A DNA stretch of 64,000 bases from Alphaproteobacteria bacterium (GTDB taxonomy: Bacteria > Pseudomonadota > Alphaproteobacteria > JASGCL01). How positions within the stretch are numbered: the stretch's first letter is position 1; every line of letters begins with the position of its first letter. The translations under genes and the position numbers were made by a program. Below, one piece after another: positions 171-64,000 of the stretch. The notes below the pieces were generated by a model, which was not told the DNA's origin, searched no databases, and saw nothing but the letters and a program-made list of their open reading frames with translations. The DNA lies in the NCBI GenBank assembly GCA_965262775.1, contig CBDHFT010000006.1, positions 179,883 to 243,882 on the forward strand, read 5' to 3'.

Positions 171-2025
171 TTGGCGGGCGGGGTTGATGTGGTGGTGCCC
201 GTTCCCGCGGATCAAAATTTCTTCTTCACCGCCACCGATAGCGATGCCAGCAATATAATTTATTCGGTCAGCGGCACCGAAGCCGCCAATTTCACCGTGG
301 CCAGCAACGTCGATGGTATGAAGGGTAAGGGTAAATTAACATATATTGGCGATTTGGATTATGAAACCACCAGCCACACCCACACCGTGACGGTGGTGGC
401 AACGTCGGGCAATAATAGTGTAACCCAATTGTTTATATTGACAGTAACGGGTTTGAACGACGAAGCGGCGGTTTGGACCAACAGCAGTGCCAACGGCACA
501 ATTTCAGAAAATAACGTGGCGGGGGTTGCGTTGGCAACATTTACGGCCACCGACCCCGACGGCGCGGGCGTAACATATTCATTAACGGGCACCGACGCCA
601 ATTTGTTCAGTTTGGATTCCAGCGGCGGTTTGCATCTTAAATCGGCGTTGGATTATGAAGGAACATACAATGGCCACAATGGCCATGTATTCAGCGTTAT
701 TGTCAATGCGTGGGGCACCGCGGGTGGCACGGCGGGCAGCGCGGCGATTGGTTTTGGTGCCCACGGCCACGACCAAATTGTTTGTGTTAGGTTTGGGTAA
801 TATTAATGAATTCGCCACGGGTTTTGTTGGAACGTTAAGAAGTGGTGTTGCCATTAGCGAAAATAATGCGGTCGGGGTAACGGTGGCGAATTTCCGTGCA
901 ACCGATGGCGATGGGGTGACCGTGGATTATAGCGTGAGTGGCACCGACCCGAGCTACTTCAGCGTTGATACAAATGGTAATTTAAAATTAAAATCAAGTT
1001 TGGATTTTGAAGATAGTGTTCATACGGCGAAAAATTACAGCGTGACGGTGGTTGCAAAATCGACCGACGCCAGCGCGGCGATTAGCAGTGTGTTTGTGTT
1101 GAGTTTGGGTAATGTGAATGATAATGCGACAACGATTGGCGCAATGCACACCAGTGGCGCGGCGGTGGCAAAATCGGCCGCGGTGGCGGGATTATCGGTG
1201 GCGCATTTTGAATTGAACGATACAGATGGAACGGGTTTTGAATATAATGTGTGGAACTTGGCTGGTTCCACCGATGCGAATTCTTTCAGCATGGACAGTG
1301 TTGGCGGATTGCATATCAAAACCGCCCTGACAACATCAACCAAGGCATTTTATACCATGGTGGTGGGTGGCCACGGAACAAGCGGCGGCGCGGGAACGGG
1401 CGCGGCGGCTACGTGGGTATCGCAAACATTTATTTTCAGCCTGAATACCAGCGCGCAATTGGCCGACCACACGGCCTATATCGACGGCACCACGGCGACC
1501 CACGCGGTGAATGTGGGTGGCATTATTGGCCATGACGATGCAGGGAATATTGATTATGCCAATGTGCAATTCCATGGTGTTAATTATACCGATAAAGTCA
1601 TTACGCGCAATGTTGAACCCGATGGTTTGCAATTAACCACGGTGGATTATGTGGTGCGCGGGATTAGCGATTTGGAATCTTTACGCCTAAGTTTTAACGG
1701 CTTCACCGATACGGATGGTACTAAACGTAACCATTGGTTCTTCGTCCAGGATGATGCCACGGACCACAGCGGGCATATTGTGTTTGACGCCGATGGGCAG
1801 AATGTGAATTTACACGCTTTGAACAATGGCGGTGGTTTAGCAACTTCTGACCAAATTAATTTATTGGCTGGTTCAAATTACGGCATTGACGGCGATTTTA
1901 CCAAACCAACTGATTTAAATTTGAACTTGGCTTCTGACCCATTACATCAAAATACGGCGGGGGCATTGACCTTCGACCAATTCCTGGCCCTCCTCGGCGG
2001 GAATAATCACATCAGTTTTGTTTAG
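171..2025 (+). pseudogene. 3' portion of a giant cadherin-like-repeat adhesin (probable T1SS substrate), interrupted by a frameshift near 730-790 (ORFs 171..800 and 655..2025)
   Basis: Recurring ~100-aa units are present, e.g. ISENN(V/A)(A/V)GV...F.ATD.DG..V.YS(L/V)(T/S)GTD...F(S)(L/V)D..G.L.LKS.LD(Y/F)E......Y.V.V.A.S...LF(I/V)L.(V/L).G(L/V/I)N(D/E). The two ORFs are in different frames, and the repeat register continues across the junction. The C-terminus is Gly/Asp-rich, with a non-cleaved tail typical of type I secretion substrates. Confidence 0.6.
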
Positions 2026-15256: not shown

Positions 15257-16564
15257 ATGGCTAAAAAAATATTTGACCTTCATGCCGATGGCTCGGCGAT
15301 TGTAGAAATTTTACCGCTTGAGGTTTTGGATAGCCGCGGCAACCCGACGCTGCAGGTTACGGTAAAATTATTAAGCGGCGCGGTGGGCGTGGCGTTGGTG
15401 CCATCGGGCGCGTCAACTGGTAAACATGAGGCCGTGGAATGGCGCGACGGCGATAAAAAAAGATTTGGCGGCAAAGGGTTGCTGGAACCATGTGAAAAAA
15501 TTAAAGGCGAAGTGAGTGATTTGTTGTTGGGGCAGCAGGCGGGCGACCAATTGCGATTGGATAAATTATTGTTGGCGTTGGATGGCAGCGACAACAAAAA
15601 AATCTTGGGTGCCAATACCATTTTGGCGGTGTCGCTGGCTATCGCCCGTGCGGCGGCGGCGCATTACGGCTTGCCGCTTTATCGTTATCTTGGTGGAACC
15701 ACGGCGCATTTGTTGCCCGTGCCCATGATGAACATCATCAACGGTGGCATGCACGCCGATAACAATTTGGATATTCAAGAATTCATGATTATGCCCGTTG
15801 GTTTTCAAAAATTTTCTGATGGTTTGCGGGCGGGGGTTGAAATATTCCATAGCTTGCGATCCATTTTAAAAAGCAAAAAGCTTAATACCAATGTCGGCGA
15901 TGAAGGGGGTTTCGCGCCCGATATCGCTAGCGCGGAGGAGGCCTTGGCTTTGATAGGCGAAGCGGTCAAGTCGGCGGGATACAAAGAAGGCAAAGAAATT
16001 TTTTATGCACTAGATTGTGCCAGCACCGAATTTTTTAAAGATGGCGTTTATGATATGATGGGCATGAAGAAAAAAATGTCCAGCGCGCAATTAACCGATT
16101 ACCTGGCTGGCTTATGTAACAACTTCTCCATTATTTCTATCGAAGACGGCATGGCCGAAGACGATTTGGCGGGATGGGAAATATTGACAAAACGCCTGGG
16201 CGATAAGGTGCAATTGGTTGGCGATGATTTGTTTGTTACCAACCCCAAAAGATTGCAAATGGGCATTGATAAAAATTTAGCCAATGCTTTGTTGGTGAAG
16301 GTGAACCAGATAGGAAGCCTGAGCGAAACCCTGGAGGCGGTCAACATGGCGCATCGCAATCATTACCTTGCCGTTATGTCGCACCGTTCGGGCGAAACCG
16401 AAGATACCACGATAGCCGACTTGGCGGTTGCAACCGCTTGCGGCCAAATTAAAACGGGCGCGCCCAGCCGCGGCGAACGCACCGCAAAATATAATCGCTT
16501 GCTGGCCATCGAACAGGAATTGGGGCATGAGGCTGTCTACGCTGGTAAAATGATATTAAAGTAG
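15257..16564 (+). CDS. eno: Enolase
   Basis: [55 protein letters not shown] and [10 protein letters not shown] are characteristic. Confidence 0.97.
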
Positions 16565-17306: not shown

Positions 17307-18839
17307 TTACAGTTGCGTCGCGGGCAACTTGATAGGATAACGTTTGCGCAATTCAACATCCAAGGCTGGGTCAATGAAGGAATGCGGCGGCATGGCAAGA
17401 ATTTTTTCTTTGATGGCGCGCGCCTTTTCCAAAGCGGTTGGCTTGTTATTGGCTTCCCATTCTTTGGGTGATGAGCGGTCAAAGGTTTTGGGATAAAAAT
17501 AATCCTTTTGCATAACGCGTAAAGTTTGGTCGGCCCCCAAGAAATGCCCTGGGCCGTCGATGCAAACCGAACGGATGGTGTCTAAACTCAATAATTCTTC
17601 GGTGACCTCTATGCCACGAATGATACGGCTGGTCGAACCCAAAACATCATTGTCCAATATCAAACTTTCCAAGCAGAACCCGAGCAAACTGGCGTGCATG
17701 CCCGCCGATTCGTAAACCAAATTAGCCCCCGATTGCGCCACAATGGCGTGGTTATAGGCCTTTTCTGCGCCAGCCTGGTAATCAGGAATTTTTGAATCGG
17801 CCATGCCCGAAGCAACGGCGTTGATAAGCCCAAGATGCCTGCCAATTTCTGCTACGCCAGCCATCAACAATGATTGTTCGGCCGAACCGCCGCTCATGGC
17901 GCCCGTGCGCAGGTCGCTAACAAATGGCCAAGCACCAAACATGGCGGGTGCCCCTGGCTTCACGGCGTTAACATAAAATAATCCCGCCAAAACTTCGGCG
18001 GCGGATAGGGTTACCGAGCCCACCAAGGTGGCGGGGCTGGTCGCACCCGCCTGGCCCGCTGATATTAATAAAATAGGCATGCCTTCCAACGCGGCGCGTT
18101 CCAAGCAACGGCAGGCATCTTGCGCAAATTTTAATGGCGGCACCACAAAGCAACAGGATTGCGACACGAAAGGACGCGCCAGCCATTGTTCTTTGCCACC
18201 CGCAATTTCATGCAACATGGCCAAGGATAAATCAAAATGTTTGGTATCAACCCACGAAGTGCCAACATGTTTGCGCGAACCGCGCACCGAGGCATAGCAG
18301 GTGTTAAAATCCATATCCAATGGGTCGGGCAAGTCACGTGGCACCAACGAGCGTTGATAAAAATGGATGTTATCCATGTGGTCGCAGATTTTGGATGAAT
18401 GATAAAGATCTTCCAACACCGATTCGCGATATTCGTTGGTTAGGGCGTCGACCATATGCACCGCGGCACCCGCCGTGCCGTAATAAACGCGGTCATCGTA
18501 GGGGTCTAAATCCCATTCGGGGTCCAAGCCAAATAATGTAAATTTTTTATTGGCAACGGCAAGCATATCCAGCACCGCATTTTTGGGGAAACAAAGACGG
18601 TTATTTTTAACAACCGCGCCTATTTTTTGGCAATATTCTATGGTCGAGGGTAAGGCCTCGGCAAAGCCGATATTTTCCAATATGTTTAGAGCGCTTTCGA
18701 CAATTTTTGATCTTTCTTCGGCGGTAAATAATTTTAAACGCCCCGATTTCATGCCACGCCAAATGGGTTGCAGGTCGGTTTGTAAGGGGGCTTGTCTTGC
18801 GGCAACGCGCGATGCGCGGCCGCCCATTCTTAGTGACAT
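17307..18839 (-). CDS. MttB-superfamily methyltransferase without pyrrolysine (glycine-betaine/quaternary-amine:corrinoid methyltransferase-like, MtgB-type)
   Basis: 510-aa uninterrupted ORF with a TIM-barrel MttB fold. A long collinear region (ILENIGF...HMVDAL...SGGSAEQSLLMAGVAEIGRHLGL...YESAGMHASLLG) is typical of trimethylamine-methyltransferase-family proteins. There is no in-frame amber codon. Confidence 0.75.
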   Translation of the reverse strand: MSLRMGGRASRVAARQAPLQTDLQPIWRGMKSGRLKLFTAEERSKIVESALNILENIGFAEALPSTIEYCQKIGAVVKNNRLCFPKNAVLDMLAVANKKFTLFGLDPEWDLDPYDDRVYYGTAGAAVHMVDALTNEYRESVLEDLYHSSKICDHMDNIHFYQRSLVPRDLPDPLDMDFNTCYASVRGSRKHVGTSWVDTKHFDLSLAMLHEIAGGKEQWLARPFVSQSCCFVVPPLKFAQDACRCLERAALEGMPILLISAGQAGATSPATLVGSVTLSAAEVLAGLFYVNAVKPGAPAMFGAWPFVSDLRTGAMSGGSAEQSLLMAGVAEIGRHLGLINAVASGMADSKIPDYQAGAEKAYNHAIVAQSGANLVYESAGMHASLLGFCLESLILDNDVLGSTSRIIRGIEVTEELLSLDTIRSVCIDGPGHFLGADQTLRVMQKDYFYPKTFDRSSPKEWEANNKPTALEKARAIKEKILAMPPHSFIDPALDVELRKRYPIKLPATQL

Positions 18840-24150: not shown

Positions 24151-25308
24151 TTAAGCTAAGGCCTGTTCCCAATCACGAATAAGATCCTCGTGATTTTCTA
24201 AACCCGTGGAGAAACGGATAAGGTCGGGCGGCACGGTGGAACCTTCCCCCTCGACCGTATACCGATGTTCGGCCAAGGATTCGGGGCCACCGAGCGAGGT
24301 TGCGCGGCGTATCATTTTTAAATTGCGCACCACTTTCAATGCTTCGGCTGCACCGCCGTTCACATGGATCCCCATCAACCCACCAAATCCACCGTGCATT
24401 TGTTTTTGTGCCACGGCATAATTGGGGTGGCGGGGTTGGCTGGCGTGCCTAATCAATGATATTTTTTTATGCTGGCTTAAGAAATCGGCAACCTGTGCCG
24501 CATTATCCGAATGTTTTTTAACCCGCAGGAATAATGTTTTCAGGCTGCGGGTTAATAAAAAACTGCTGAAGGAATCAAGCACCCAACCAAATAAAAATCG
24601 TTGGTCTTTTATACGCAACCATTGTTCGGTTTCGGCCTTGCTGGTCACCGTGCCCGCCAGCAAGTCATTATGCCCACCCAGAAATTTGGTTGCCGAATGC
24701 ACCACGTAATCGGCACCCAGATCCAGCGGGCGGGTTAGGATGGGCGTTGCCGCCGTGCTGTCGACGCATAATTTTGCCCCAACCGCCTGGCAATGTTGCG
24801 CGGCCTTGGCAATATCAACAATATGATTCATGGGGTTCGATGGAACCTCGACCCATACCAAAGCTGGCTTATGTTGTTTGATGGCTGATGCCAAGGCTTC
24901 GTCGTCGCCACTTTTAACCCATATGACTTCGATACCATAACGGTTGAGGTGTTGCGTCGCCAATTTGGGCAGGCCATAATAAAGCGAATCCTGGACCAAG
25001 CATTTGTCGCCTTGCGACAGGGCAAGGAAGATGGCACTCATCGCGGCGGCACCCGAAGGATAAAGCAATGTTTCAAAGCCCCCTTCCAAATGGTTGAGCA
25101 TGGCAGAACATTGGTCAAGGCTGGCATTGTCATCGCGCACATAGCCACGCTCGTCATGTTTTTCATATTGATCATTACGGAGGTAGGTTGTGCCCGTGTA
25201 GATAGGCGGGTGGATATTCCGCGTTTTTTCGTCATAAAAATATAACCCTTGGACAATTTCGCTTTCCAAAGATAAACCAGCGGGGCGGGGGGGTAATTTA
25301 CGGGGCAT
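24151..25308 (-). CDS. PLP-dependent trans-sulfuration enzyme (cystathionine gamma-synthase / beta-lyase / O-succinylhomoserine sulfhydrylase family)
   Basis: Cys/Met-metabolism PLP family. SATKFLGGHNDLLAG carries the PLP lysine in the SxTK context. Overall collinearity with MetB/MetC/MetZ. Confidence 0.8.
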   Translation of the reverse strand: MPRKLPPRPAGLSLESEIVQGLYFYDEKTRNIHPPIYTGTTYLRNDQYEKHDERGYVRDDNASLDQCSAMLNHLEGGFETLLYPSGAAAMSAIFLALSQGDKCLVQDSLYYGLPKLATQHLNRYGIEVIWVKSGDDEALASAIKQHKPALVWVEVPSNPMNHIVDIAKAAQHCQAVGAKLCVDSTAATPILTRPLDLGADYVVHSATKFLGGHNDLLAGTVTSKAETEQWLRIKDQRFLFGWVLDSFSSFLLTRSLKTLFLRVKKHSDNAAQVADFLSQHKKISLIRHASQPRHPNYAVAQKQMHGGFGGLMGIHVNGGAAEALKVVRNLKMIRRATSLGGPESLAEHRYTVEGEGSTVPPDLIRFSTGLENHEDLIRDWEQALA

Positions 25309-25399
25309 GTTGCAAACGTGATAAAAACTATAGGTAAACTTGTATCAATTTTTTTTTCAAAAAACAATTGACAAGTTGCTTAACGGCGGGATTATTTTT

Positions 25400-30296: not shown

Positions 30297-30677
30297 TTAC
30301 AGGCTTTTGCCGTCAAACAATTCGATATCCAGCGATGCAAAATCAATCCCTGGAATACAACGGACATTAATATCCACTTCATCGACTTTATCGGTTTTGG
30401 TGCGGTTGTTGTCGGCATAAATTAATAAACCGCAAGTTTTACAAAAATGGTGGGTATACATGTTGCGGTTGGTAAAACTATAGGCTGCCAAGTTATCACC
30501 ACCCGTTAGCAAGGTGAAATCGCCCCTATCAAGCACCGCCCACAAAACCCCAGCCTTGCTGCAAAAGGAACAATTGCATTCCGATATTTTATTGGTATCA
30601 ATGGGCGCGCGAAATGTTACGGCTTGGCAATGACAGGACCCTTCGTGTATTTTTTTGCTCATGTTTCCTGTTGCCAT
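30297..30677 (-). CDS. GFA-family (CENP-V / glutathione-dependent formaldehyde-activating-like) zinc-binding protein
   Basis: The pattern CHCQAV...CNCSFCSK......C..CG across about 120 aa is the Mss4-like GFA signature. Confidence 0.7.
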   Translation of the reverse strand: MATGNMSKKIHEGSCHCQAVTFRAPIDTNKISECNCSFCSKAGVLWAVLDRGDFTLLTGGDNLAAYSFTNRNMYTHHFCKTCGLLIYADNNRTKTDKVDEVDINVRCIPGIDFASLDIELFDGKSL

Positions 30678-31234
30678 AATTTTTCTAATAAGTCCATGGC
30701 GGCGAACAGGGCTTGTTCGCGAATATCTTGGCGATGGCCATCAAAATGATATTCCTGCACCAGGGTTTTTTTCTGTTGGTTGGCAACGGCGATGAAAACC
30801 AAACCATCGGCTTGGTTGGTGGCGGGCGTGCTTGTTATATGATAGGCCGATTTGTCCCCCGCCAAACCCGTGATGGCGATACCATGGGTAATAGCATGGG
30901 TAATGCCAACGCTGTCTTTATCGCCCCCCGCCGCATTGTTTGTCATGGGGGGATGAAATAACCCCAGGGCCATGTCGCGCGCCACAGCTTCATTAACCGC
31001 GCCGTCCCTTGCCAGCAATGTAGCATCAACCCCCAAATAAGATATTTTCCATGAATTGTGATAGGTTATAATACCGCCATAAAAAACGTTGGATATCCCC
31101 GCGACCGAGGTGAATAACCCACCCAATAATCCCCCCGTGCAAGATTCGGCGGTGGCCAACACCGCCCCGCGGTCGTGGGCCAGTTGCAAGCAAGCCGCGG
31201 CGCGTGATAATAATTTTTCGTTAAAGATGTTCAT
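30659..31234 (-). CDS. CinA C-terminal domain protein (NMN amidohydrolase PncC-like)
   Basis: A.SCTGGL....T..G.S..F.GG...Y........LGV.......GAV....A..MA is the conserved CinA_C core. Confidence 0.7.
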   Translation of the reverse strand: MNIFNEKLLSRAAACLQLAHDRGAVLATAESCTGGLLGGLFTSVAGISNVFYGGIITYHNSWKISYLGVDATLLARDGAVNEAVARDMALGLFHPPMTNNAAGGDKDSVGITHAITHGIAITGLAGDKSAYHITSTPATNQADGLVFIAVANQQKKTLVQEYHFDGHRQDIREQALFAAMDLLEKLWQQET

Positions 31235-32898: not shown

Positions 32899-34284
32899 CT
32901 AATAAGAAAGTTGTTTTATAAATGCCATAACATCGCCGCCAAATTCATTCTTAATTTGTTTGAGTATTTTATCGCTGGTGGATTCTTTTGAATTCACCAC
33001 CTCGCGAATAAATTCTAAGAAAATAGTTTCGTCGTTGCCCAATTGATTTTTGACGGCGCGCGATTTTAATCCGCCCTCGGCAATTACCAACAATTCTTTT
33101 AAATAATCATAGGCGGTAAATTTTCCTAGCGACGCCCTTAACCCCAAACGCGGCACATCATGGGCAAAGGCCACCATCTCAGCCACGGGCCATTTTGCCA
33201 CCATGTCATAGGCGGCGTCCAAACTTGATTGGTCATACAACAAACCAACCCACAGGGCGGGCAGGGCGCACAAATGTTGCCACGCACCCACGTCGGCGCC
33301 GCGCATTTCTAAATATCTTTTTAATCGCACCTCGGTAAAGACAACCGTCAAATGGTCATCCCAATCCTTGATGGTGGCGGGGCGGTCTTCAAACCCGGGC
33401 AAATTGCCCGCCATGAATTTTTTGAAATCTTTGCCCAGGGCATCGCGATAAATTATTTTATGATTTTTTTCATAATCCTTATCGTAATCCTTTACGAAAT
33501 ACATCGGCACATCCAGCATGTAATCAACCCACATGTCGTAACCAAAACCATCGTCAAACACCACGGCGGGGAACCCCGTGCGGTCGGGGTCGGTGTCTTG
33601 CCACACCGCGACGCGGGTTGATTGGAAATCGGTTATTTTGCCGTTCATGATGGGCGAATTGGCAAACAAAGCCGAGGCAACGGGTTGCAAGGCCAGCGAA
33701 GCGCGGAATTTTTTTACCATGTCGGCCTCGGACGAAAAATCAAGGTTGACCTGCACGGTGCAGGTTTGTGTCATCATTTCGGTGCCACGTTTGCCGCGGG
33801 TTGGCATATATTGGCGCATCAAGGCATAACGCCCCTTCGGCATCCATTCGATACTATCGGGGTTGTGCAACGGGTCATGGCCCAGGCCGAACATTTGAAT
33901 ATTAAATTCTTGGCAAACCTGCAACATCATTTCCAAGTGGCGATTGGTTTCGGCGCAGGTTTGATGAAGGTTTTTTAACGGCGCGCCCGATAATTCAAAT
34001 TGGCCGCCAGGTTCCAACGTGATGGAATCCATGTTGGTGCCAGTAAGGCCAATGATGTAATCCCCTTCCCAAATGGGTTGCCAGTTGGTTTTCTTTTGCA
34101 AAAAATTTAGCAATTCTTGAATGCCATTTTTGCCGAAATAGCCAACGCGTTGTTGATTACTTTTGTTGTATAAAAATTTTTCGTGTTCGGTCCCTATCAG
34201 CCATTTGTCTTTGGTTTTTTCACCGCTGGCAATGTAATCGGCCAATTGTTGTTTTTTGGTAATGGGGGAAGATTCTTTTGCCAT
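32899..34284 (-). CDS. gshA: Glutamate--cysteine ligase, plant/alphaproteobacterial GCS2 type
   Basis: IGTEHEKF, ITLEPGGQFELSGAP, RVAVWQDTDPDRTG and a C-terminal dimerisation helix. The ORF track extends upstream to 34497, but homology begins at MAKESSPITKK (34284). Confidence 0.9.
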   Translation of the reverse strand: MAKESSPITKKQQLADYIASGEKTKDKWLIGTEHEKFLYNKSNQQRVGYFGKNGIQELLNFLQKKTNWQPIWEGDYIIGLTGTNMDSITLEPGGQFELSGAPLKNLHQTCAETNRHLEMMLQVCQEFNIQMFGLGHDPLHNPDSIEWMPKGRYALMRQYMPTRGKRGTEMMTQTCTVQVNLDFSSEADMVKKFRASLALQPVASALFANSPIMNGKITDFQSTRVAVWQDTDPDRTGFPAVVFDDGFGYDMWVDYMLDVPMYFVKDYDKDYEKNHKIIYRDALGKDFKKFMAGNLPGFEDRPATIKDWDDHLTVVFTEVRLKRYLEMRGADVGAWQHLCALPALWVGLLYDQSSLDAAYDMVAKWPVAEMVAFAHDVPRLGLRASLGKFTAYDYLKELLVIAEGGLKSRAVKNQLGNDETIFLEFIREVVNSKESTSDKILKQIKNEFGGDVMAFIKQLSY

Positions 34285-34300
34285 TTTTGGTGGTTGTGTA

Positions 34301-35098
34301 TCATAATCGATTATAAAAGAAAAGCCCCGCCAGCATAGCAAGCCCTGCTGTCTCACTGCGTAAGATTGTATTACCCAAACTGACGCCGAAAAATTTTTTT
34401 TGCGTGGTGGCTTGCATTGTTTCTTGCGCGCGCAACCATTTCCTTTCGCTATCGGTAAAGCCGCCAGGTGGACCAACCAACAAACCCACGGCGTCATGGT
34501 TGCTCGTTGCGTTATTTTTTATCAGGGCAAGCGTTTCCCTAAAATTGGCACCGCCCTTTTCATCGCCATAGATAATGGGCATAGCAGGCGACGCCAGAGC
34601 TTCAAGCTCGATAGCATCATGGAGCGTTGCTGGGGCGAGGCGGCCTGACAATTCGGTCGCGCCCATGGCTACCTTCTGCCATTTTTCTTTTTGCTTCTGC
34701 CATTCTTCCTTTTTACGCTCGGTAAGGTCGGTAATAACGGGGATAAGGTCGCTCGCCCCCAATTCAATCGCCTTGGGTATCAGGGTATCAAGTCGTGATT
34801 TTTCCAACAAAGCAAAATACAAAATGGTTTTTGCATGATGCGGCATGGGTGATTTTTCCAACGACATGATTTGTAAACTTGCCGTTTTTTTTTCTATACG
34901 CGCAATATGGGCGCGGTATTCGCCAACCCGTTCGTTGAACAACAACAATTCATCATTGACCTGACGGCGCAGCACCGCCAGCAGGTGATGATTTTGTTCG
35001 GGCGATAAAATGGATTCTAAAGGGGCAGTTGGTTTATCCAGCCCCATGGTTGTTTCTAGGCCAGGGCAATAGAATCGCGGAACATGACGCTGCTTCAT
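34301..35098 (-). CDS. rsmE: 16S rRNA (uracil1498-N3)-methyltransferase RsmE
   Basis: N-terminal PRFYCP, a PUA-like domain, and a C-terminal SPOUT knot (LLVGPPGGFTDSE, SLG.TILR.ETA). Confidence 0.85.
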   Translation of the reverse strand: MKQRHVPRFYCPGLETTMGLDKPTAPLESILSPEQNHHLLAVLRRQVNDELLLFNERVGEYRAHIARIEKKTASLQIMSLEKSPMPHHAKTILYFALLEKSRLDTLIPKAIELGASDLIPVITDLTERKKEEWQKQKEKWQKVAMGATELSGRLAPATLHDAIELEALASPAMPIIYGDEKGGANFRETLALIKNNATSNHDAVGLLVGPPGGFTDSERKWLRAQETMQATTQKKFFGVSLGNTILRSETAGLAMLAGLFFYNRL

Positions 35099-45607: not shown

Positions 45608-45976
45608 ATGACCGTTCAGAAATTGCTCATTGGTATTATTTATAGTCTGTCATTGATTATTCTTTGTTGGATGCCGACCTACCTTGGTTATTATTTAAGC
45701 CAAGCCAACCGCGAGGTTAAATTTTTGAAAAGAGAATTGCTGGCGACGCGCGCCGAAAATAGTCGGCTAGAAATAGCTTATAGCAATCTTTCTAGCCCTT
45801 CTTCGGTGGCGGCCCTCACCGAAAAATTTTTACCAGAAATGAAACGGATGAGCGAAAGCCAATTCGTGAGTCGTGATTGGTTTTTACAAAATAATTTTGT
45901 TTACAACCACAGCCAAAATCGCTTGGCGCTTGACGGTGAAGAACAGGTCAACAAGCAACTCAAAAGTTTAAATTAA
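45608..45976 (+). CDS. ftsL: Cell division protein FtsL (alphaproteobacterial type)
   Basis: 122 aa with an N-terminal TM, a coiled coil, then a periplasmic tail. It sits between rsmH and ftsI. Confidence 0.6.
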   Translation: MTVQKLLIGIIYSLSLIILCWMPTYLGYYLSQANREVKFLKRELLATRAENSRLEIAYSNLSSPSSVAALTEKFLPEMKRMSESQFVSRDWFLQNNFVYNHSQNRLALDGEEQVNKQLKSLN

Positions 45977-53592: not shown

Positions 53593-54675
53593 ATGGCACG
53601 TTTATTATTCACCCGCGCGGATAGAGGATTGCTTGCCCGTTGGCGGTGGTCGGTTGATATTGGCACCATCGTGTTGGTTTTTTTATTGATGGCGATTGGG
53701 TTGTTGGCGGTATCGTCGAGCATGGCCAACACCAACACCCCGCCCAATGTTTTTGTTAAGCATATTGTTTTGTCATTACTGCTATCATAACCATGCTGGG
53801 GGTGAGTTTTTATCGCCCCGTCAGGTTAAGGCCTTTTCGGGCGTGTTATTTTTTGTTGCCCTGGCCTTGATGATTTTAATATTGCTTAAGGGTGGGCAAG
53901 AAGCAAAGGGGGCGCGGCGTTGGCTGTCGCTTTTTGGATTTGCCTTGCAGCCTTCTGAATTTATTAAACCCAGCCTGGCCGTGTTGTTTGCCAATTTGTT
54001 TGTGCTGGGCAAAAAACAACAACAGGCGATATTTTATGGCTTGGCGGCTTTTATTTTGTTGGTGGTGGCGGGTTTGTTATTATCGCAACCCGATATCGGT
54101 ATGACCATGTTGGTATGTTCGACATTTTTGATTATTTTATTTTTTGCGGGCACGCCGTTTCGTTCATATTTCCGCTGTTCATTCGCCGCCCTGGTTCTGG
54201 TGGTGGTGGTTTATTATGTTTTTCCGCATGTGCAGGACAGGATATTACATGTGAATGATTACCAAGTAAAAAAATCGCTGGCGGCCTTCGCCAATGGTGG
54301 TTTTTTGGTGTGGGTTTGGGTAATGGGGTTGTTAAATTAACCCTGCCCGATGTTCACACCGATTTTATTTTGGCTTTGTTGGGGGAGGAGTTGGGCTTGG
54401 TGCCGACCTTGCTGATTATGGCTATTTACCCGACCATCATTTTGAAATGTTTTAAGCGGCTTTATGAAAGCAAGAATAATTTTGTTATTATTGCGGGCGG
54501 GGGTTTAACCTGTCAATTTGGCTTGATGGCGCTTATTAATATTTTTAGCGCGCTTGGCCTGGGACCAACCAAGGGCTTAACCTTGCCCTTCATTTCTTAC
54601 GGTGGTTCGGCGATGATGGCGAGCGCGCTGAGCATGGGGTTTTTATTGGCACTAACGCGACAAAAAAATGATTAA
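53593..54675 (+). CDS. ftsW: Peptidoglycan glycosyltransferase / lipid II flippase FtsW, split over frames 1, 0, 2 and 1 by three homopolymer frameshifts
   Basis: SEDS-family segments were found in four pieces: (a) WSVDIGTIVLVFLLMAIGLLAVSSS...FVKH; (b) in frame 0, ITAIITMLGVSFYRPVRL; (c) ARRWLSLFGFALQPSEFIKP; (d) GNGVVKLTLPDVHTDFILALLGEELG...TKGLTLPFISYGGS. The shifts occur at T4, T4 and T6 runs. A T7 run at the last site would restore NGGFFGVGLGNG. Confidence 0.75.
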
Positions 54676-55865
54676 AAAAATAATGAAAGCAAAAACCATG
54701 TCGCCATCATCAAAACAATATAAGATATTGCTGGTTTCGGGCGGCACGGGCGGGCATAGTTTTCCCGCCCTGGCGGTGGCGCGGTTGCTTGCCCAACATG
54801 GCCATGCCCCCAGCATTATATGCGAACAACGCGGCTTCGAATATTTTAAGCAGGCTATGGACCAAGAAAAATTAAACTGCCCGATATATTGTTTACCGTT
54901 AAAAAGTCCGCAAGGCGGCAAAGTAAAAAAAATAATATCCGCCCTGTCGCTCTTGACCAGTATTTTGCCTGCCGCGAAATTGTTGCGCCGTGAACGCCCC
55001 GATATATTATTGGGGTTTGGTGGTTACATGATGATACCCAGTTTTTTGGCGGCGCGCCTAGGCCGTGTGCCCCATGTTTTTTTGGAACAAAATGCGGTGA
55101 TGGGTCGCGCTAATCGTTTGTTTAAATCATCCGCCGCGGCGATAGCCACGGGGTTGCCAACCTGCCGCGGGTTGAGCAAGCGAGAAAAAGCAAAAACTCA
55201 TTTTGTTGGCACGCCCATCAAGCAAGAATTCTTACAAGTGGGCGAGGGCGCAGGTCATAAAACTAACAAAAAAAAATATCACCATATTGGTGACGGGTGG
55301 TTCCCAGGGGGCAAAGGTCTTTGCCGATATTGTCCCCCGCGCCATAGAAAAATTGTTAAAAAAATTGGATGGCACGGCGATAACTATTCACATTCAACAA
55401 CAATGCAAGGCCGAGCAAATCAAGGATTTGGCCATTGCCTATAATAACTTGGGCGTGAAGCATGACATCAAAGATTTTTTTTATGATGTGCCACAAAAAT
55501 TGGCAACGGCGGATATTTTTATTGGCCGCGCGGGGGCATCAACCATAGCCGAGGTTGCCAGCATGGCAAAACCTTGCATCCTTATTCCCTTTCCTTTCGC
55601 GACCGACAATCACCAATATTATAACGCGCGGTTGTTGGCCGATAAAAAATCTTGCCGCTTGCTTAGCGAAAAGAAAAACAAAACCATCGCCGATACCGAA
55701 CAATTAAGCGAAGCCTTGGCCGATGAATTGCTTGACCTTATCCTCCACCCCAAACATCGCCAGCAATTGGCCAGCAATATTAAAAATTTTGCTCAAAAAA
55801 ATGCTGGTGCTGAATTGATGAAATTGGCTATAAGCGTGGCAAAACAACATAAAAAATTGGCATAA
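54668..55865 (+). CDS. murG: UDP-GlcNAc:undecaprenyl-PP-MurNAc-pentapeptide GlcNAc transferase MurG, frameshifted at an A9 run (55268-55276)
   Basis: N-terminal half ORF 54668..55444 (GGTGGH...VGTPI.QEF). C-terminal half ORF 55203..55865 (ILVTGGSQGA...). The frames meet in AACAAAAAAAAATAT; with A8 the product reads ...GHKTNKKNITILVTGGSQGAKVF. Confidence 0.8.
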
Positions 55866-55869
55866 AAAA

Positions 55870-57342: not shown

Positions 57343-58287
57343 ATGTCAGAAGAAAATATCGTACCCATGGCGTCAAACCCCCTACAACAATCCCTGCAAA
57401 CATTATTGACGGGCAAGGTAAGGGGCAAATTGTTGTTCGATGAACCACTCGCGCCACACACCTGGTTTCAGGTTGGTGGCAAGGCCGATGTTTTTTTTGT
57501 CGCCCAGGATAGGGATGATGTGAAGGATTTTTTACAATTGCTGCCGCGGGATGTGCCCCTCTTGCCCGTGGGGGCGGCGTCTAATTTGTTAGTGCGCGAT
57601 GGTGGCTGGCGCGGCGCGGTGGTAAAATGTGGCAAAGGATTCCAAACCATGAGCCACGAAGCAGGGATGATAACGGCGGGGGCGGCGGTGCTGGATGCCA
57701 GCTTGGCACAATTTGCCCTAAAAGAAAAAATAACGGGCTTAGAATTTTATTTGGGTATTCCAGGCACCGTGGGCGGCGCGGTGGTTATGAATGCTGGTTG
57801 CTTCGGGGGGGAGACCAAGGACGTCTTGCACCACGCCGATTTTATAACGCGCGATGGTGAAATCATCACCCTGACCCGCGACCAATTACAATTTTCTTAT
57901 CGTCATTCGGTTATTCCACGCGGGGCTATTTGCCTTGCCGCTTATTTTACGGCCAAGCCAGGCGATGAAGAAAAAATTCGCGAGACAATGCTAAGGCTGA
58001 AGGAAGAGAAAAGTAAAAACCAACCCCTGCGCGGTAAAACGGGCGGGTCGACTTTTAAAAATCCTTTACCGCAACATGCCTGGCAATTGATAGACGCGGT
58101 TGGTTTGCGCGGGCATCGCTTGGGTGGGGCTATCTTCAGTGAAAAACATTGCAATTTTTTAATCAACGATGATAACGCGACCGCCGCTGATATAGAGGCA
58201 TTGGGCGAGCGGGCGGTTGCATTGGTGAAAGAAAAATTTGCCATCGATTTAGAATGGGAAATAAAAAAAGTCGGCGAAAGGAAATAA
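57343..58287 (+). CDS. murB: UDP-N-acetylenolpyruvoylglucosamine reductase MurB
   Basis: FAD-binding PCMH domain (GGKADVFF...GAASNLLV), then the C-terminal substrate domain (GGSTFKNP). Confidence 0.9.
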   Translation: MSEENIVPMASNPLQQSLQTLLTGKVRGKLLFDEPLAPHTWFQVGGKADVFFVAQDRDDVKDFLQLLPRDVPLLPVGAASNLLVRDGGWRGAVVKCGKGFQTMSHEAGMITAGAAVLDASLAQFALKEKITGLEFYLGIPGTVGGAVVMNAGCFGGETKDVLHHADFITRDGEIITLTRDQLQFSYRHSVIPRGAICLAAYFTAKPGDEEKIRETMLRLKEEKSKNQPLRGKTGGSTFKNPLPQHAWQLIDAVGLRGHRLGGAIFSEKHCNFLINDDNATAADIEALGERAVALVKEKFAIDLEWEIKKVGERK

Positions 58288-58297
58288 ATTTAATACC

Positions 58298-59248
58298 ATG
58301 AAAAAAAAATATAAAAAAATTGCGCTGTTGCTTGGCGGGCCATCGGCCGAGCGCGAAGTTTCGTTGGTGTCGGGTGCCGCGGTTTACGATGCCCTCAATG
58401 CGCTAGGCTATGAAAGCAAAAAATTTGATCCCGCCCAGACCGACGCGGCTTCCCTCGCGCAATTTAAAAAACAATTGCAAGAATTTGCGCCCGACGCTTG
58501 CTTCAACGCCCTGCATGGTCAGTTTGGTGAAGATGGTGCGGTGCAGGAAATATTGGAATCGCTCAAGATTCCCTATACCCATTCTGGGCCCGCTGCTTCG
58601 CGCCTAGCCATGAATAAATTGGCAAGTTTGAATCTCTTTCAGCAACATGGTTTATCCATTGCCAAACATGAATCTTATGACGCGACAAAGGTTAATGGAT
58701 TAACCAGCAAAGACATAACCATCGGCTTCCCCCTGGTTATCAAACCAATATACGAAGGTTCGTCGGTTGGTTTGTATATCGTTAAAACCGAAAGCGCGAT
58801 GCCCGACCTATCGTCATGGCATTTTGGTGATGCCTTGATAGAAGAATATATCGATGGGTTAGAATTAACCACCGCGGTGTTAGAAATTGATGGTGTTGCC
58901 CGTGCTTTGGCGGTGACCGAATTGCAACCCAAACGCGGCGTTTATGATTACAAGGCAAAATACCAAGACGGCGAAACAACCCATGTTTGCCCCGCCGCTA
59001 TTGCACCCGATATTTACCAACAATGTTTGGCGATGGGGCTGGCGGCGCATCGCGCTATCGGCGCGGCGGGTGTCAGCCGCAGTGATTTCCGTTATAACCC
59101 CGTCAAAAAACAATTGGTTATTTTGGAAACCAACACCCAGCCAGGCATGACCGCCCTGTCATTGGTTCCCGAACAGGCGAAGTATAAAGATATTCCCTTT
59201 ACGCAATTGGTGGAATATATTCTATCAAGTGCCAGTTTAAAATTGTAA
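58298..59248 (+). CDS. ddl: D-alanine--D-alanine ligase
   Basis: ATP-grasp. IALLLGGPSAEREVSL, ALHG.FGEDG, PLVIKP and EYI.G.E. Confidence 0.95.
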   Translation: MKKKYKKIALLLGGPSAEREVSLVSGAAVYDALNALGYESKKFDPAQTDAASLAQFKKQLQEFAPDACFNALHGQFGEDGAVQEILESLKIPYTHSGPAASRLAMNKLASLNLFQQHGLSIAKHESYDATKVNGLTSKDITIGFPLVIKPIYEGSSVGLYIVKTESAMPDLSSWHFGDALIEEYIDGLELTTAVLEIDGVARALAVTELQPKRGVYDYKAKYQDGETTHVCPAAIAPDIYQQCLAMGLAAHRAIGAAGVSRSDFRYNPVKKQLVILETNTQPGMTALSLVPEQAKYKDIPFTQLVEYILSSASLKL

Positions 59249-59267
59249 TATCAACCTGATAAAAAAC

Positions 59268-60083
59268 ATGAATCATTTTTACCATCGCCTTGCTGGTTTC
59301 ATGATATTGACCATCATTCTGGCGACTGGTGGGTTTGTCTATTTTTTTCTCTACCCGCCGCTCAACCCTGATAGTCGTCTTTATTTTATCACGCCAAGAA
59401 TCGAATCGCTGGCGCGGCGTTTGGATTTTGTGTTGCGGTCCACGGCGATAAGCCAAACCACCTTCACTTCGGAACAGGATATTGTTGGCAAGGTTTTGGC
59501 CAGCCACCAAGTTGCCTTGGGGGAAGCCTTGCCGCTTATCCCCGCGCGGGTTATAAAAAAAGAATTGGAAGCCCTGCCCATGGTGTTATCGGCGACGGTG
59601 GTGGTGCATTACCCCAGCCGCCAATTGCGTATCAATTTTGTGGAACGGCAACCCTTGGCGGTGTTATCGCCGCAAAATAAGATAATCACGCTTGATGGAC
59701 GGTTGTTACCCTTGCCATCGGCGGGTGGTGATAAATTAAAAAATATAATGCGTGTAAGGAACGAAGCGCAAGGTGAAACAGAACAGGCTAGGTTGATAAA
59801 ACACTTTTTTGAATTATATAATGGCTTGCAAGCCTATAGCCTGTTATTGGATATTGTGAGGGAAGCGCAATTTGTTGGCGGGCGACGTTGGCGTTTGTTT
59901 TTGGCGCGACCGTTGGGTAATGATGATTTGCTGGTCGAATTGCCAGAAAACCTTACCACCGAAACCCTGGCGCGCTTAAGCAAATTAATATTGGTTGATA
60001 AGGTTTTGGATTTAAAAATTGCCAAGCTTGACCTAAGACTTGAAAATCAGACTTTGGTGAGGTTATTATCGCCCAATAAATAA
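59268..60083 (+). CDS. ftsQ: Cell division protein FtsQ
   Basis: N-terminal TM, then POTRA and FtsQ beta-domain. Position between ddl and ftsA. Confidence 0.7.
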   Translation: MNHFYHRLAGFMILTIILATGGFVYFFLYPPLNPDSRLYFITPRIESLARRLDFVLRSTAISQTTFTSEQDIVGKVLASHQVALGEALPLIPARVIKKELEALPMVLSATVVVHYPSRQLRINFVERQPLAVLSPQNKIITLDGRLLPLPSAGGDKLKNIMRVRNEAQGETEQARLIKHFFELYNGLQAYSLLLDIVREAQFVGGRRWRLFLARPLGNDDLLVELPENLTTETLARLSKLILVDKVLDLKIAKLDLRLENQTLVRLLSPNK

Positions 60084-60128
60084 CAGAAGATAATAACAAA
60101 ATACAAAGTAAATGCGCTATAACAAAGA

Positions 60129-61457
60129 ATGACTTTACTAAAGAATCGTTGGTTGGCGCCCGCCGCGGCATTAAGGGACAGTTGGCAAGATTTTTCGCAA
60201 AAATTTGATAACGAGCCATTTGGCGTGCTGTCCCTGGGCAGCAGCATGATAAGGGTTGCTATTTTCAGGCGCGACCGACAAAATAATCCGCTGTTGATGG
60301 GTATCGGCATGACCCCTTCGCTGGGGTTGAAGGACGGGTTCATCACCGACTTGAAGGCTTGCCGCGACAGGGTATTTCTAGCCTTGAACCAGGCAGAAAA
60401 AATGGCAGAATATAATTTAAAACAAATTGCTGTGTTGTTTTCGGGCCCGCAACCCGTGGTGTTGATGAAGAAATACAAATTAAGCCTGGGCGGGGCGGCG
60501 GTATCGCGCCGTCATCTTGCAACCCTCAATCAAAAATTTTGGTCGCCCAAATCGGTGGAGGAATATCATTTGCTTTATCCCATACCTTTTGAATATCGGC
60601 TTGACAGCTCCCCATCCTTAAAAAATCCATTGGGGTTGGTGGGGCAAAACCTTTCCCTAACCATGGCGATGATATATGAAGAACGCCACGCCCTGCAAAA
60701 TATCGATGGATTTTTGGAGAAGTTAAATTTACCCCCGTCGTTGTTGATAGACGAAGCCATGGCGGTGGCACTTGGCATGACCTCCATCGAAGAACAAGAA
60801 ATAGGCTCCCTATCAATTCATATTGGGGCGGAGACTATCAACCTGGCGGTGATAAAAAACTTTTGCCCCATATTCATGCACCGATTTAATATGGGCGGAA
60901 GTTTTTTAACCAAACAATTGGCCAACGCCCTCGCCATTGATATAAAAACCGCGGAGGCACTCAAAAAGAATTTGCCTAATATCACGGGCCATGGCAACCC
61001 AGTGGGCAATAGCAGTCGCGACGGCGACAAGCATTTTTCCCCCAACCCATTACTGCCCCATGTGGATATGGATAAGGCCCTGTTGGTGGTGCGGGATTAT
61101 TTATCGCAAGTTTTCAATCAAGCCATCGGCATTTTAGAAAAGCATCACATCGATTATCGGCAATTATCGGTGATAACGGTAAGCGGCGGCGGTGCAAAAA
61201 TAAAGGGTTTGGACGAATTGCTCAAAGAAAAATTAAAGAAAATGGTGCGCACCACACCCACGACCGATATTAAAAATTTACCGCCATATATACATGGCAT
61301 AGAAATTGCAGGAATAATTGGCACGGCTTTATTCATCATCAAAAAACAACTTAACCAGCAACAAAAAAATATTTCCCCCGTTGATTTTTACCAACCCTTA
61401 CCCAAAAATTCTATTTTACACAACATCATCGCTTGGGCGAAAAGAAATTATGGCTAA
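60129..61457 (+). CDS. ftsA: Cell division protein FtsA (divergent actin-fold ATPase)
   Basis: Actin/Hsp70 fold blocks (SLGSSMIRVAIF, IHIGAETINLAVI, VITVSGGGAKIKGL) and a C-terminal amphipathic tail. It lies upstream of ftsZ. Confidence 0.75.
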   Translation: MTLLKNRWLAPAAALRDSWQDFSQKFDNEPFGVLSLGSSMIRVAIFRRDRQNNPLLMGIGMTPSLGLKDGFITDLKACRDRVFLALNQAEKMAEYNLKQIAVLFSGPQPVVLMKKYKLSLGGAAVSRRHLATLNQKFWSPKSVEEYHLLYPIPFEYRLDSSPSLKNPLGLVGQNLSLTMAMIYEERHALQNIDGFLEKLNLPPSLLIDEAMAVALGMTSIEEQEIGSLSIHIGAETINLAVIKNFCPIFMHRFNMGGSFLTKQLANALAIDIKTAEALKKNLPNITGHGNPVGNSSRDGDKHFSPNPLLPHVDMDKALLVVRDYLSQVFNQAIGILEKHHIDYRQLSVITVSGGGAKIKGLDELLKEKLKKMVRTTPTTDIKNLPPYIHGIEIAGIIGTALFIIKKQLNQQQKNISPVDFYQPLPKNSILHNIIAWAKRNYG

Positions 61458-61523
61458 ACCTAGAAATACCCGAAAGAACTTGTGGAATATATCGAATTAT
61501 TATAAGAATAAGGAACAAAAGTT

Positions 61524-63536
61524 ATGAGTTTTAATCCCAATATAATTGTTTTTGGCGTGGGCGGTGCGGGATGCAACGCCGTCAACAACATGGTTGAAAA
61601 GAAATTACTGGGTGTGCAATTTGTTGCCGCCAACACCGATGTGCAATCCTTGATGCACTCCAAAGCCGATATAAAAATTCAATTGGGCAGCACCCTAACC
61701 CAGGGGTTGGGTGCGGGTGGCAACCCCGAGGTTGGCCGTGAAGCGGCGCGTGAAAATACCGCTGAAATTAAGGATACTTTAAAAAATTGTAACATGTTGT
61801 TTATTACCGCGGGTATGGGCGGGGGCACGGGCACGGGTGCGGCGCCGTTGATTGCAAAAATTGCCAAAGAAATGAATATATTGACCATCGGGGTTATCAC
61901 CAAGCCATTTGGTTTTGAAGGTCGCAAAAAAATGGATGTTGCGCTTGATGGTATTCGCGCCATGAAGGATCAAGTCGGCACGTTAATTATTGTGCCCAAT
62001 CAAAATTTGATGTCGCTCGCCAACGAAAAAACCACAAACCGCGAAGCATTTATATTGGCCGATGAAGTTTTGTATAATGGTGTTGCGGGTATTAGCGATA
62101 TTATTGTGCGTCCTGGGCATATTAATTTGGATTTGGCCGACCTGCGAAGTGTGATGGCTGAAATGGGTCGCGCCGTGTTGGGCACGGGCGAGGCAAGCGG
62201 CAAAGACCGCGCCACATTGGCCGCGCAGCGCGCCATTCAAAATCCTTTATTAGAAAATACCGACATTGCGGGGGCGCGCCAATTGCTTATTAATATTTCG
62301 GGCGGCGATGACCTCACGTTATTTGAAACCGAAAAATCTATTGATATCATTGCCAAGGCGGCGGGCGAGAATTGCAATATTCATATCGGCAGTGCAAGCG
62401 ATGAGAGCTTAAAAGGCAAAATAAGGGTTTCTTTGGTGGCAACGGGTATTAAGCAAGACGGCGCGACCAGCAAATTGTCGTCAGCATTTCAATCCAACAC
62501 CGCGGATAAAACCGATGAGCATTTGGCGGCCATCAAAAATACCCCGTTAAATCCGTTTAACCCACTTCGCCCGTTGGAAGAAGAGGAAGATGCAAACATG
62601 GATGGCGAAGGTGATAATACCCATTCATCATTTATGCAACGCGACCAATTTTCGTCCGATGCCGATGACATCACGGTGCATCGCTCAAGCTATAACGGCT
62701 TGACCGCGCGGGCAGATGACAGCACCCAGGACAATTACCATGGCGACACCGATGACAATATTAACGGCGGCGAACCCATGATGAGCAGGGAGACGGATAA
62801 AAACAAAGAAGTTTCATCTTTCTCTCGGGCCATGGGGATGAATAACGAAAAGACCAGCAGTGGTGGCCGACCAATTTTTGATAATCCCTTTGCTCAGGGT
62901 GCCAATAATGTTGCGGCTGGCGGGGAAGCGGTATCGTTGGATGATATCGAGGAAGCAGGCACGGTGCATAGAAGTTTTGCAACCAAAAGCTCGACCGATA
63001 CCCACGACCCCGTGAAAGAAGCCATGGCGGATTTTGACGATTTTTCAAAAAATATCATAGGCGACGAAGCCAGGGATGCTCGGCGTTTGGCCACCAGCCA
63101 ACATGACGATGGGCGTGGTGATTCGGGCGATGATGGCGACATCAACCAACATTATGCCGCCTGGCAATTGGCAAGGCAAAAACGCGAGGAAGAAGATGCC
63201 GCCGCCTTAGACAGGAATTCAATCTATCAAGAAAAAAACCTTGCCGAGAAAAAGAAGCCAGGTTTGATGAAGAGATTCTTTGGGGGTTTTTTTGGTTCGG
63301 CCGAGGATGAAGACGAAGACGAAGATGTAATGCAAGATGTTGCCAGTCAACGTTGGGCAAGGTATCCTGAGGTAGTTGACCTGCGCGGTGAAGCGGCCGA
63401 TGATGGCGCCCCCCCGATGAAGCGTAGCACCAAAGTTGATAAAGTGAAAAAAGCCAGCGCGCGCAAAAACGCCGAGGCGGTGGATGATGGCGAAGCTTCT
63501 TTATCTGACCTTTTTTCGGTGCGCCGTAACGATTAG
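61524..63536 (+). CDS. ftsZ: Cell division GTPase FtsZ with an unusually long (~330-aa) acidic disordered C-terminal linker
   Basis: GVGGAGCNAV, tubulin signature GGGTGTGAAP, NTD and T7 loop, all within the first ~320 aa. A D/E/N-rich low-complexity linker follows, ending ...DDGEASLSDLFSVRRND, which resembles the conserved C-terminal DIPAFLRRQ peptide. Confidence 0.9.
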   Translation: MSFNPNIIVFGVGGAGCNAVNNMVEKKLLGVQFVAANTDVQSLMHSKADIKIQLGSTLTQGLGAGGNPEVGREAARENTAEIKDTLKNCNMLFITAGMGGGTGTGAAPLIAKIAKEMNILTIGVITKPFGFEGRKKMDVALDGIRAMKDQVGTLIIVPNQNLMSLANEKTTNREAFILADEVLYNGVAGISDIIVRPGHINLDLADLRSVMAEMGRAVLGTGEASGKDRATLAAQRAIQNPLLENTDIAGARQLLINISGGDDLTLFETEKSIDIIAKAAGENCNIHIGSASDESLKGKIRVSLVATGIKQDGATSKLSSAFQSNTADKTDEHLAAIKNTPLNPFNPLRPLEEEEDANMDGEGDNTHSSFMQRDQFSSDADDITVHRSSYNGLTARADDSTQDNYHGDTDDNINGGEPMMSRETDKNKEVSSFSRAMGMNNEKTSSGGRPIFDNPFAQGANNVAAGGEAVSLDDIEEAGTVHRSFATKSSTDTHDPVKEAMADFDDFSKNIIGDEARDARRLATSQHDDGRGDSGDDGDINQHYAAWQLARQKREEEDAAALDRNSIYQEKNLAEKKKPGLMKRFFGGFFGSAEDEDEDEDVMQDVASQRWARYPEVVDLRGEAADDGAPPMKRSTKVDKVKKASARKNAEAVDDGEASLSDLFSVRRND

Positions 63537-63696
63537 TTGCCGCCCCCCTAGGGCAGGGCATCCATGGGCGTTTATGGTCACCAAAAAAGCGTGTGAAAGA
63601 TAAGCGACAGGATAAAAGGCCAATTGCCACTTTAACATATGTTTGATATAGAACAGGTTATAAAAAAAACTTTGCGACCCATTTATTATTACCGTC

Positions 63697-63973
63697 ATGC
63701 AATTTAAGAAAGCTATTTTTTTACTCTTTACCTTGGGAATTCTTTACGGGATTACCAACACGGCCTTGCAAACCTACCGCTTGTTTAAAAAAAAACCAAG
63801 AGATAGCAGCATTAAAGAATCAGCAAAAACAATGGCAAGAAAAAAACCAAATCTTAGGCAAAAAAATAAAATCGTTGGATAGCACCCATCCCGATAAAGA
63901 TTTTTTGGAAGAACTAGCGCGCGAAAAATTGGGCTACAATTATTCTGATGATATCCATTTAAAAGACCATTAG
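63697..63973 (+). CDS. ftsB: FtsB/DivIC-like septum formation initiator, frameshifted at an A9 run (63787-63795)
   Basis: The 61-aa ORF stops early. With A8 the frame continues as MQFKKAIFLLFTLGILYGITNTALQTYRLFKKNQEIAALKNQQKQWQEKNQILGKKIKSLDSTHPDKDFLEELAREKLGYNYSDDIHLKDH, that is TM, coiled coil, then the FtsB C-terminal DPDYIEELARE.LG motif, ending at the TAG at 63971. Confidence 0.65.
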
Positions 63974-64000
63974 TATTTTTTGTTTGCTATGGGGATGAAA

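Follow-up and report, generated by a model that had tools for sequence, protein, structure and literature searches.

A split ftsB gene downstream of ftsZ

The window, a stretch of 64,000 nucleotides from an alphaproteobacterial assembly, carries a gene of the FtsB/DivIC family (septum formation initiator) directly 3' of ftsZ, from which it is separated by an intergenic spacer of 160 nt. As written, the gene is divided between two reading frames (Table 1). The frame changes at a run of exactly nine A, which frame 0 reads as three lysine codons, with CCA AGA next. From within this run, the +1 frame stays open up to a TAG at 63971-63973; it encodes ...NQEIAALKNQQKQWQEKNQILGKKIKSLDSTHPDKDFLEELAREKLGYNYSDDIHLKDH and has the C-terminal end ...DKDFLEELAREKLGYNYSDDIHLKDH. 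Deletion of one A from the run joins the two frames into 92 codons. These contain the stop, so the repaired product has 91 amino acids and not 92, as the initial annotation had it. In the other sequence facts that annotation agrees with the DNA, namely a 61-aa ORF, the nine-A run and a +1 frame continuing to the C-terminal end given above. A promoter and terminator scan of 63300-64000 returned nothing that exceeded shuffled expectation.

The mechanical ORF list holds both the 61-aa ORF and a 32-aa ORF that starts with TTG, and the two could be taken at face value as genuine small genes with no frameshift between them. We exclude this reading, to which we give next to no credence. Relatives encode a single continuous protein of 90-91 aa that is collinear with both pieces, the Pfam domain crosses the junction, and residues 33-61 of the 61-aa ORF are without counterpart in any relative.

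Table 1. Features of the ftsB locus, one-base changes relative to L001 (OZ241918.1) and intact orthologues. Positions are those of the window unless a contig handle is given.
Feature	Position	Strand	Remarks
ftsB/DivIC-family gene (septum formation initiator)	63697..63973	+	split between frame 0 and frame +1 as written
61-aa ORF	63697..63882	+	stop TAG; residues 1-32 genuine FtsB, residues 33-61 out-of-frame junk
N-terminal transmembrane helix, residues 6-24, AIFLLFTLGILYGITNTAL	63712..63768	+	from hydropathy; conserved in relatives
A9 run with one-base excess	63787..63795	+	A8 in the two closest relatives, A7 in more distant ones
Heptad/putative coiled-coil segment, approximately residues 34-60	63796..63877	+	+1 frame; read by eye from the repaired translation
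TTG-start ORF, 32 aa	63875..63973	+	from the mechanical ORF list
Conserved C-terminal motif DKDFLEELAREKLGY, residues 66-80	63893..63937	+	+1 frame; inside the PF04977 match
ftsZ (670 aa, long acidic linker)	61524..63536	+	upstream neighbour; 90% identity to L001 FtsZ
ftsQ	59268..60083
ftsL candidate	45608..45976		between rsmH and ftsI
murD indel	52465		G lost, no homopolymer
ftsW indel	53768		T5 to T4
ftsW indel	53807		T6 to T5
ftsW indel pair	54163/54182		-1/+1, 19 nt apart
ftsW indel	54301		T7 to T6
murG indel	55268..55276	+	A8 (L001) to A9; breaks murG (ORFs 54668..55444 and 55203..55865)
ftsB indel	63787		A8 to A9
Intact ftsB orthologue	L001:12184-12459		91 aa
Intact ftsB orthologue	L002:1182-1457		90-91 aa
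Intact ftsB orthologue	L003:6001-6273		90-91 aa
Intact ftsB orthologue	L004:3006-3278		90-91 aa

The repaired protein and its family

The repaired 91-aa protein matches the Pfam profile PF04977 (DivIC) with 46.7 bits (cut-off 28.9, E 2.8e-12). The match places residues 15-86 on positions 5-73 of the 80 profile positions and spans the junction at residues 32/33, and the unrepaired 61-aa ORF gave no match to PF04977. The initial annotation had proposed this profile search as a check on its claim of a hidden FtsB/DivIC-family gene, located 3' of ftsZ and broken at an A9 run that is one base too long. The repaired translation matches clearly, and the claim holds, with intact orthologues as further support. 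An NCBIfam search with the FtsB protein returned only ftsL_broad, below threshold. PDB sequence searches, run with the protein and with a five-sequence profile, retrieved no FtsB structure; the sole match was a chance bZIP protein (E 0.5).

Residues 6-24 are hydrophobic, with a mean Kyte-Doolittle hydropathy of 1.79 over 19 residues, and the remainder of the protein is hydrophilic. This points to a single N-terminal transmembrane helix and a bitopic protein, and bears out the transmembrane segment that had been noted before. A visual reading of the translation beyond the junction gives an a/d spacing of I36, L39, Q43, W46, N50, L53, I57 and L60. In five homologous sequences I36, L39, W46, N50, L53 and L60 are invariant, and two polar residues, Q43 and N50, occupy core positions of the heptad segment. 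Within the C-terminal motif, K67, D68 and L70-Y80 (KD-LEELAREKLGY) are invariant in all five homologues. The C-terminal segment of characterised FtsB proteins contacts FtsQ.

Judged by these sequence features, the locus would encode an ordinary functional divisome protein of the FtsB/DivIC family, with an N-terminal anchor, a putative short coiled coil and the conserved LEELAREKLGY. A relative's orthologue is already annotated as a divisome component of this kind. The broken frame concerns the state of the copy in the window and not its homology to FtsB/DivIC.

Division-gene neighbourhood

The FtsZ encoded upstream of ftsB contains a linker of about 340 aa that is acidic and of low complexity; in-frame indels of 3, 6 and 30 nt distinguish it from the linker of the relative. 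A search with this linker in a collection of 5.8 billion proteins found no homologue at E <= 1e-10. FtsQ has weak Pfam support, with 23.0 bits for FtsQ_DivIB_C (cut-off 21) and 21.3 bits for POTRA_1 (cut-off 23). The FtsL candidate occupies the canonical position for this gene; its DivIC match is sub-threshold at 15.6 bits.

Many Proteobacteria share a linkage of eno and ftsB. In the window, the region 15257-17294 holds enolase (15257..16564) followed by a dCTP-deaminase-like gene and not by ftsB. The gene order ftsQ-ftsA-ftsZ-divIC is identical in L003-L006, and ftsB also lies 3' of ftsZ in L001. The presence of an intact ftsB directly 3' of ftsZ in relatives indicates that this lineage has ftsB within the ftsQ-ftsA-ftsZ block.

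Elsewhere in the window, a two-piece alphaproteobacterial tmRNA is found at 26662-27086, which assigns the organism to the Alphaproteobacteria. The Rfam family PYLIS_3 (the pyrrolysine insertion sequence of mttB) matches 17705-17804 on the minus strand with 42.8 bits. The match lies inside an uninterrupted ORF of the MttB family (17307..18839), which presumably encodes a non-pyrrolysine MttB homologue.

The orthologous gene is uninterrupted in relatives

The lineage set consisted of the window, OZ241918.1 (L001), a Logan contig of run SRR13639653 (L002) and GCA_030054115.1 (L003/L006); L004 was also compared. OZ241918.1, a chromosome of 1.63 Mb named 'MAG: Alphaproteobacteria bacterium', was the one close genome in the species-representative collection. 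It shares about 12.4 kb with the window (51541-64000) at 94% nucleotide identity, and its intact ftsB encodes a protein 95% identical to the repaired window protein. A protein search found three homologues only: P0001 (93%), on the Logan contig of SRR13639653; P0002 (64%), in GCA_030054115.1 and on two Logan contigs; and P0003 (62%). Across these comparisons, the intact orthologues of 90-91 aa are 93-95% identical in close relatives and 54-60% identical in more distant ones. The gene is intact on all contigs retrieved for P0001 and P0002, and where its upstream neighbour lent itself to annotation, that immediate neighbour is ftsZ.

GCA_030054115.1 (contig JASGCL010000011.1) is named 'Hydrotalea sp.' at NCBI, after a genus of Bacteroidota, yet it shows the dcw-ftsZ-ftsB synteny and encodes the 64% identical FtsB. 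This bin may be mislabelled or contaminated.

At the site of the break, the window reads TTT-A9-CCAAGAG, L002 reads TTT-A8-CCAAGAG, L001 reads TTT-A8-TCAAGAG, and L003 and L004 read TTT-A7-GGGAAGAA. Around the site, L002 equals the window sequence except for one A, and relative to the inferred ancestral state the window has one inserted A. No relative shares the frameshift, as each has A8 or A7 at the orthologous position and stays in frame. The initial annotation had named a simple error, with A8 as the true length, as the alternative to its own reading, and with these orthologues in hand the alternative is the better supported of the two.

We found no second sample of the species in the data searched, which covered exact FtsZ and FtsA sequences in the assembly collection, a pattern and a profile in JGI metagenomes, and the FtsZ linker. 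The flank-anchored DNA pattern, which allowed 7-12 bases at the run, had no match in the JGI metagenomes, and the protein-profile scan of the same collection had none either.

Further one-base indels in murD, ftsW and murG

Alignment of the window (51541-64000) with L001 revealed at least eight coding 1-bp indels, which break ftsB and three further genes, murD, ftsW and murG (Table 1). In-frame indels of 3-30 nt are also present. In the window, the Pfam domains encoded by murD, ftsW and murG are divided between frames; in murG, the N- and C-terminal glycosyltransferase-28 domains lie in different frames. Within 530 nt of ftsW there are five indel anomalies, while substitutions are at a normal level. 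The -1/+1 pair among them is derived in the window, as the outgroup agrees with L001, and recodes six codons of a hydrophobic segment from the membrane-like RFIFPLFI to RSYFRCSF. L001 has a single full-length ORF for each of the ten genes from murD to ftsB, and the outgroup L006 has one for each gene from ftsW to ftsB.

The two A9 breaks in division genes, which share their polarity, had earlier been regarded as non-random. Both breaks are present in the window, but a meaningful biological pattern finds no support when all indels are considered, as the two are only a subset of a mixed set of at least eight. The T-run losses in ftsW have the opposite polarity, the G lost from murD is outside any homopolymer, and ftsW also holds the -1/+1 pair. 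Five other coding A9 runs are in frame, and the shift is not conserved among relatives.

For estimates of dN/dS, the window was projected onto the reading frames of L001, and L006 served as outgroup for branch counts. The broken genes gave values of 0.155 (murD), 0.132 (ftsW), 0.172 (murG) and 0.091 (ftsB), compared with 0.05-0.10 in intact neighbours and 0.164 in ftsZ; dS is about 0.2 everywhere. The projected frames of murD, ftsW, murG and ftsB contain zero in-frame stops. Amino-acid changes on the window branch and the L001 branch stand at 3:1 in ftsW, 2:3 in murG and 2:2 in ftsB, ratios like those of intact genes, and with L006 as outgroup no excess of amino-acid change was seen on the window branch. 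The four genes show no decay, and their lesions are clean and indel-only. In real pseudogenes, substitutions accumulate much faster than indels.

Location of the breaks and homopolymer runs

About 40 ORFs at 2-51 kb are full-length by coding-frame scan and Pfam coverage. Seven of the approximately eight breaks lie at 52.4-63.8 kb, with about five to seven events concentrated in 2.8 kb (52465-55276). Intact peptidoglycan and division genes comprise ftsI, murE, murF, mraY, murC, murB, ddl, ftsQ, ftsA and ftsZ. The breaks cluster by position, in adjacent genes, and do not follow the peptidoglycan pathway as a whole. This would speak for a local technical cause rather than for a relaxation of selection on peptidoglycan synthesis.

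A likely further break lies in a cadherin-repeat gene at 171-2025, where the ORFs 171..800 and 655..2025 occupy different frames and both carry cadherin domains. The junction, at about 745-760, has no long homopolymer, only GGTTTTGG. Other overlapping ORF pairs were rejected as frameshifts. The pair 32899..34497 / 34301..35098 represents two genes, a GCS2-family glutamate-cysteine ligase and an RNA methyltransferase (PF04452, with a PUA domain), and the pairs 30297..30677 / 30659..31234 and 24151..25308 / 25038..25367 were examined and are not frameshifts.

Long A/T runs are strongly over-represented in the window, with 175 runs of at least 7 bases in 64 kb at 46% GC and a sharp cap at 9; examples lie at 58301-58309, 49892-49900 and 34885-34893. 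Many of the runs are located in essential genes and have the same length in the relative. There are nine A9/T9 runs, of which seven are coding and five of these in frame (in a BamB-like gene, dciA, an rsmE-like gene, murF and ddl). In ddl, the A9 (58301, codons 2-4) is also an A9 in L001. In the region shared with L001, only 3 of the 42 runs of at least 7 bases differ in length.

Origin of the ninth A

Judged from sequence comparison, the ninth A at 63787-63795 is probably a homopolymer-length miscall, introduced as a long-read consensus or assembly error. The true run length would then be A8 and ftsB would be uninterrupted, with a protein reading ...YRLFKKNQEIAALK... across the site. Indel-only damage in conserved essential genes points to such an error. 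Long-read consensus sequences typically retain homopolymer indels that fragment gene calls, above all in low-coverage bins (PMC9262707). The lesion in ftsB follows this pattern: compared with intact orthologues, the run length has changed by one base, and the gene is otherwise free of lesions. The same assembly has further indel-only lesions in conserved genes, namely murD, ftsW and murG, which are intact in L001 and, from ftsW onwards, in L006. These genes are essential and their runs are too short for a rescue during expression, and we count them in favour of a consensus error.

Some observations fit a consensus error less well. The breaks are unevenly spread, and the affected genes all belong to peptidoglycan synthesis or division. 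With so few run-length differences from L001, the assembly cannot be called grossly error-prone. The clustering is not what a uniform error model predicts and requires the assumption of a local cause, such as a low-coverage patch; a thinly covered stretch of the assembly is a possibility for 52.4-55.3 kb. The window also encodes a complete MmeI-family type IIL restriction-modification enzyme at 4815-7577 (920 aa, with all five MmeI domains), whose methylation motif could give rise to systematic errors in the basecalling of nanopore data.

Just 5' of the dcw cluster, 43336-43860 encodes a small protein of 174 aa with ankyrin repeats. Together with the cadherin-domain protein, it hints at an association with a eukaryotic host. 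Real homopolymer frameshifts occur in host-associated bacteria, and to that extent the ankyrin-repeat protein also counts against an error. In one alternative, the A9 is real and the gene dead or dying, either through a very recent loss of murD, ftsW, murG and ftsB in a host-associated lineage or as a defective minority allele that entered a population consensus. In line with such a loss, the four broken genes of the dcw region all act in septal peptidoglycan synthesis or in regulating it, whereas about 40 genes of unrelated function are intact, and the proteins with ankyrin and cadherin domains suggest that the bacterium associates with a eukaryote. Nevertheless, we regard a real loss as improbable. 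There are no in-frame stops, no larger deletions and no excess of amino-acid changes specific to the window; the other peptidoglycan and division genes listed above are intact; and the breaks cluster by position, five of them in 2.8 kb, rather than across the pathway. At least seven indels with essentially no substitutions would further require an indel-to-substitution ratio near or above 1, and such a ratio is far from normal bacterial mutation spectra.

The alternative in which the A9 is real in the DNA does not necessarily imply loss of function. FtsB, and MurG likewise, might still be made if the frame were restored during expression, by slippage or by a ribosome slide. In the first route, RNA polymerase would slip on the nine-A run and produce transcripts with A8 or A11. 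In the second, the ribosome would shift by +1 on AAA AAA AAA C: the tRNA-Lys would re-pair from 63790-63792 to 63791-63793, the next codon would be AAC, and the product would read ...KKNQEI.... Restoration of the frame in ftsB would yield the junction peptides LFKKNQEIAALK or LFKKKNQEIAALK. A -1 programmed ribosomal frameshift at A_AAA_AAA was rejected, as it gives the wrong frame and ftsB needs +1 or -2.

In bacterial cells, transcription slips efficiently on runs of nine A or T and produces mRNAs that carry additional bases; dnaX of Thermus thermophilus relies on a run of this kind, and the relevant cases include slippage in Buchnera aphidicola and in Blochmannia (PMC5009743). The A9 at 63787-63795 reaches the threshold for slippery runs, which is about 9 A or T or more (PMC5009743), and the frequency of insertion grows exponentially with run length (PMC5574713). 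Several features of the window agree with a rescue of this kind. The downstream frame of ftsB is under purifying selection (dN/dS 0.091), long A/T runs are unusually common, the breaks in ftsB and murG share their polarity, and the ankyrin-repeat protein is a hint of host association.

On balance, however, a rescue during expression appears unlikely. The shift is absent from every relative. Transcription errors in homopolymers are overwhelmingly insertions, 80% of them of a single base, and deletions are rarely tied to runs (PMC5574713); slippage could restore the frame of ftsB only by a -1 deletion or a +2 insertion, the rarer outcomes. Essential genes with in-frame A9 runs, such as murF (49892) and ddl (58301), imply that most A9 transcripts are faithful, which also argues against a rescue. 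The breaks in ftsW, at runs of T4-T6, and in murD, without a homopolymer, are not rescuable in this way; if these are errors, the A9 calls are suspect too. That the A9s in ftsB and murG are genuine, with essential genes kept out of frame and slippage or sliding yielding a low level of functional protein, is therefore a proposal that we consider doubtful at best.

Implications

The main import of a consensus error at these sites lies in annotation quality. In this assembly, ftsB and three peptidoglycan genes would be miscalled as pseudogenes or missed. Such miscalled genes would depress estimates of completeness and might wrongly suggest a loss of the cell wall. A modest positive outcome is the placement of ftsB within the ftsQ-ftsA-ftsZ block in a little-sampled alphaproteobacterial lineage. 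Were the A9 alleles real, they would offer a testable case of slippage-dependent expression of essential genes outside the classic insect endosymbionts. A rescue would extend the phenomenon known from Buchnera and Blochmannia to a possibly host-associated alphaproteobacterium of 46% GC and to core divisome genes.

Comparison with known systems

Members of the FtsB/DivIC family (PF04977), which belong to the FtsQLB subcomplex, resemble the repaired protein in their length of about 90 aa, bitopic topology, heptad segment and conserved C-terminus, and its profile score exceeds the gathering threshold. The dcw cluster of the window also holds FtsQ and an FtsL candidate, and the orthologue in a relative carries the NCBI name 'septum formation initiator family protein'. 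The window gene differs from the known members in its location directly 3' of ftsZ and its broken frame, and it has no sequence match to solved FtsB structures.

Slippage-rescued genes, as described for Buchnera, Blochmannia and T. thermophilus dnaX, share with ftsB an A9 in the coding region, a frame error of one base and a homopolymer-rich genome, and in the window too the downstream frame is under purifying selection. In contrast to these genes, the shift in the window is common to no relative, requires -1 or +2 slippage rather than the favoured +1, and is accompanied by breaks at short T runs that slippage could not rescue.

The homopolymer errors of long-read sequencing (Nanopore and PacBio) differ from the lesions of the window in two respects: the indel at 52465 lies outside a homopolymer, and the errors are locally clustered and do not extend over all long runs. 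In other respects the two correspond. The window has one-base indels mostly at A/T runs with no excess of substitutions, gene calls are fragmented in conserved genes, and the closely related assembly is clean.
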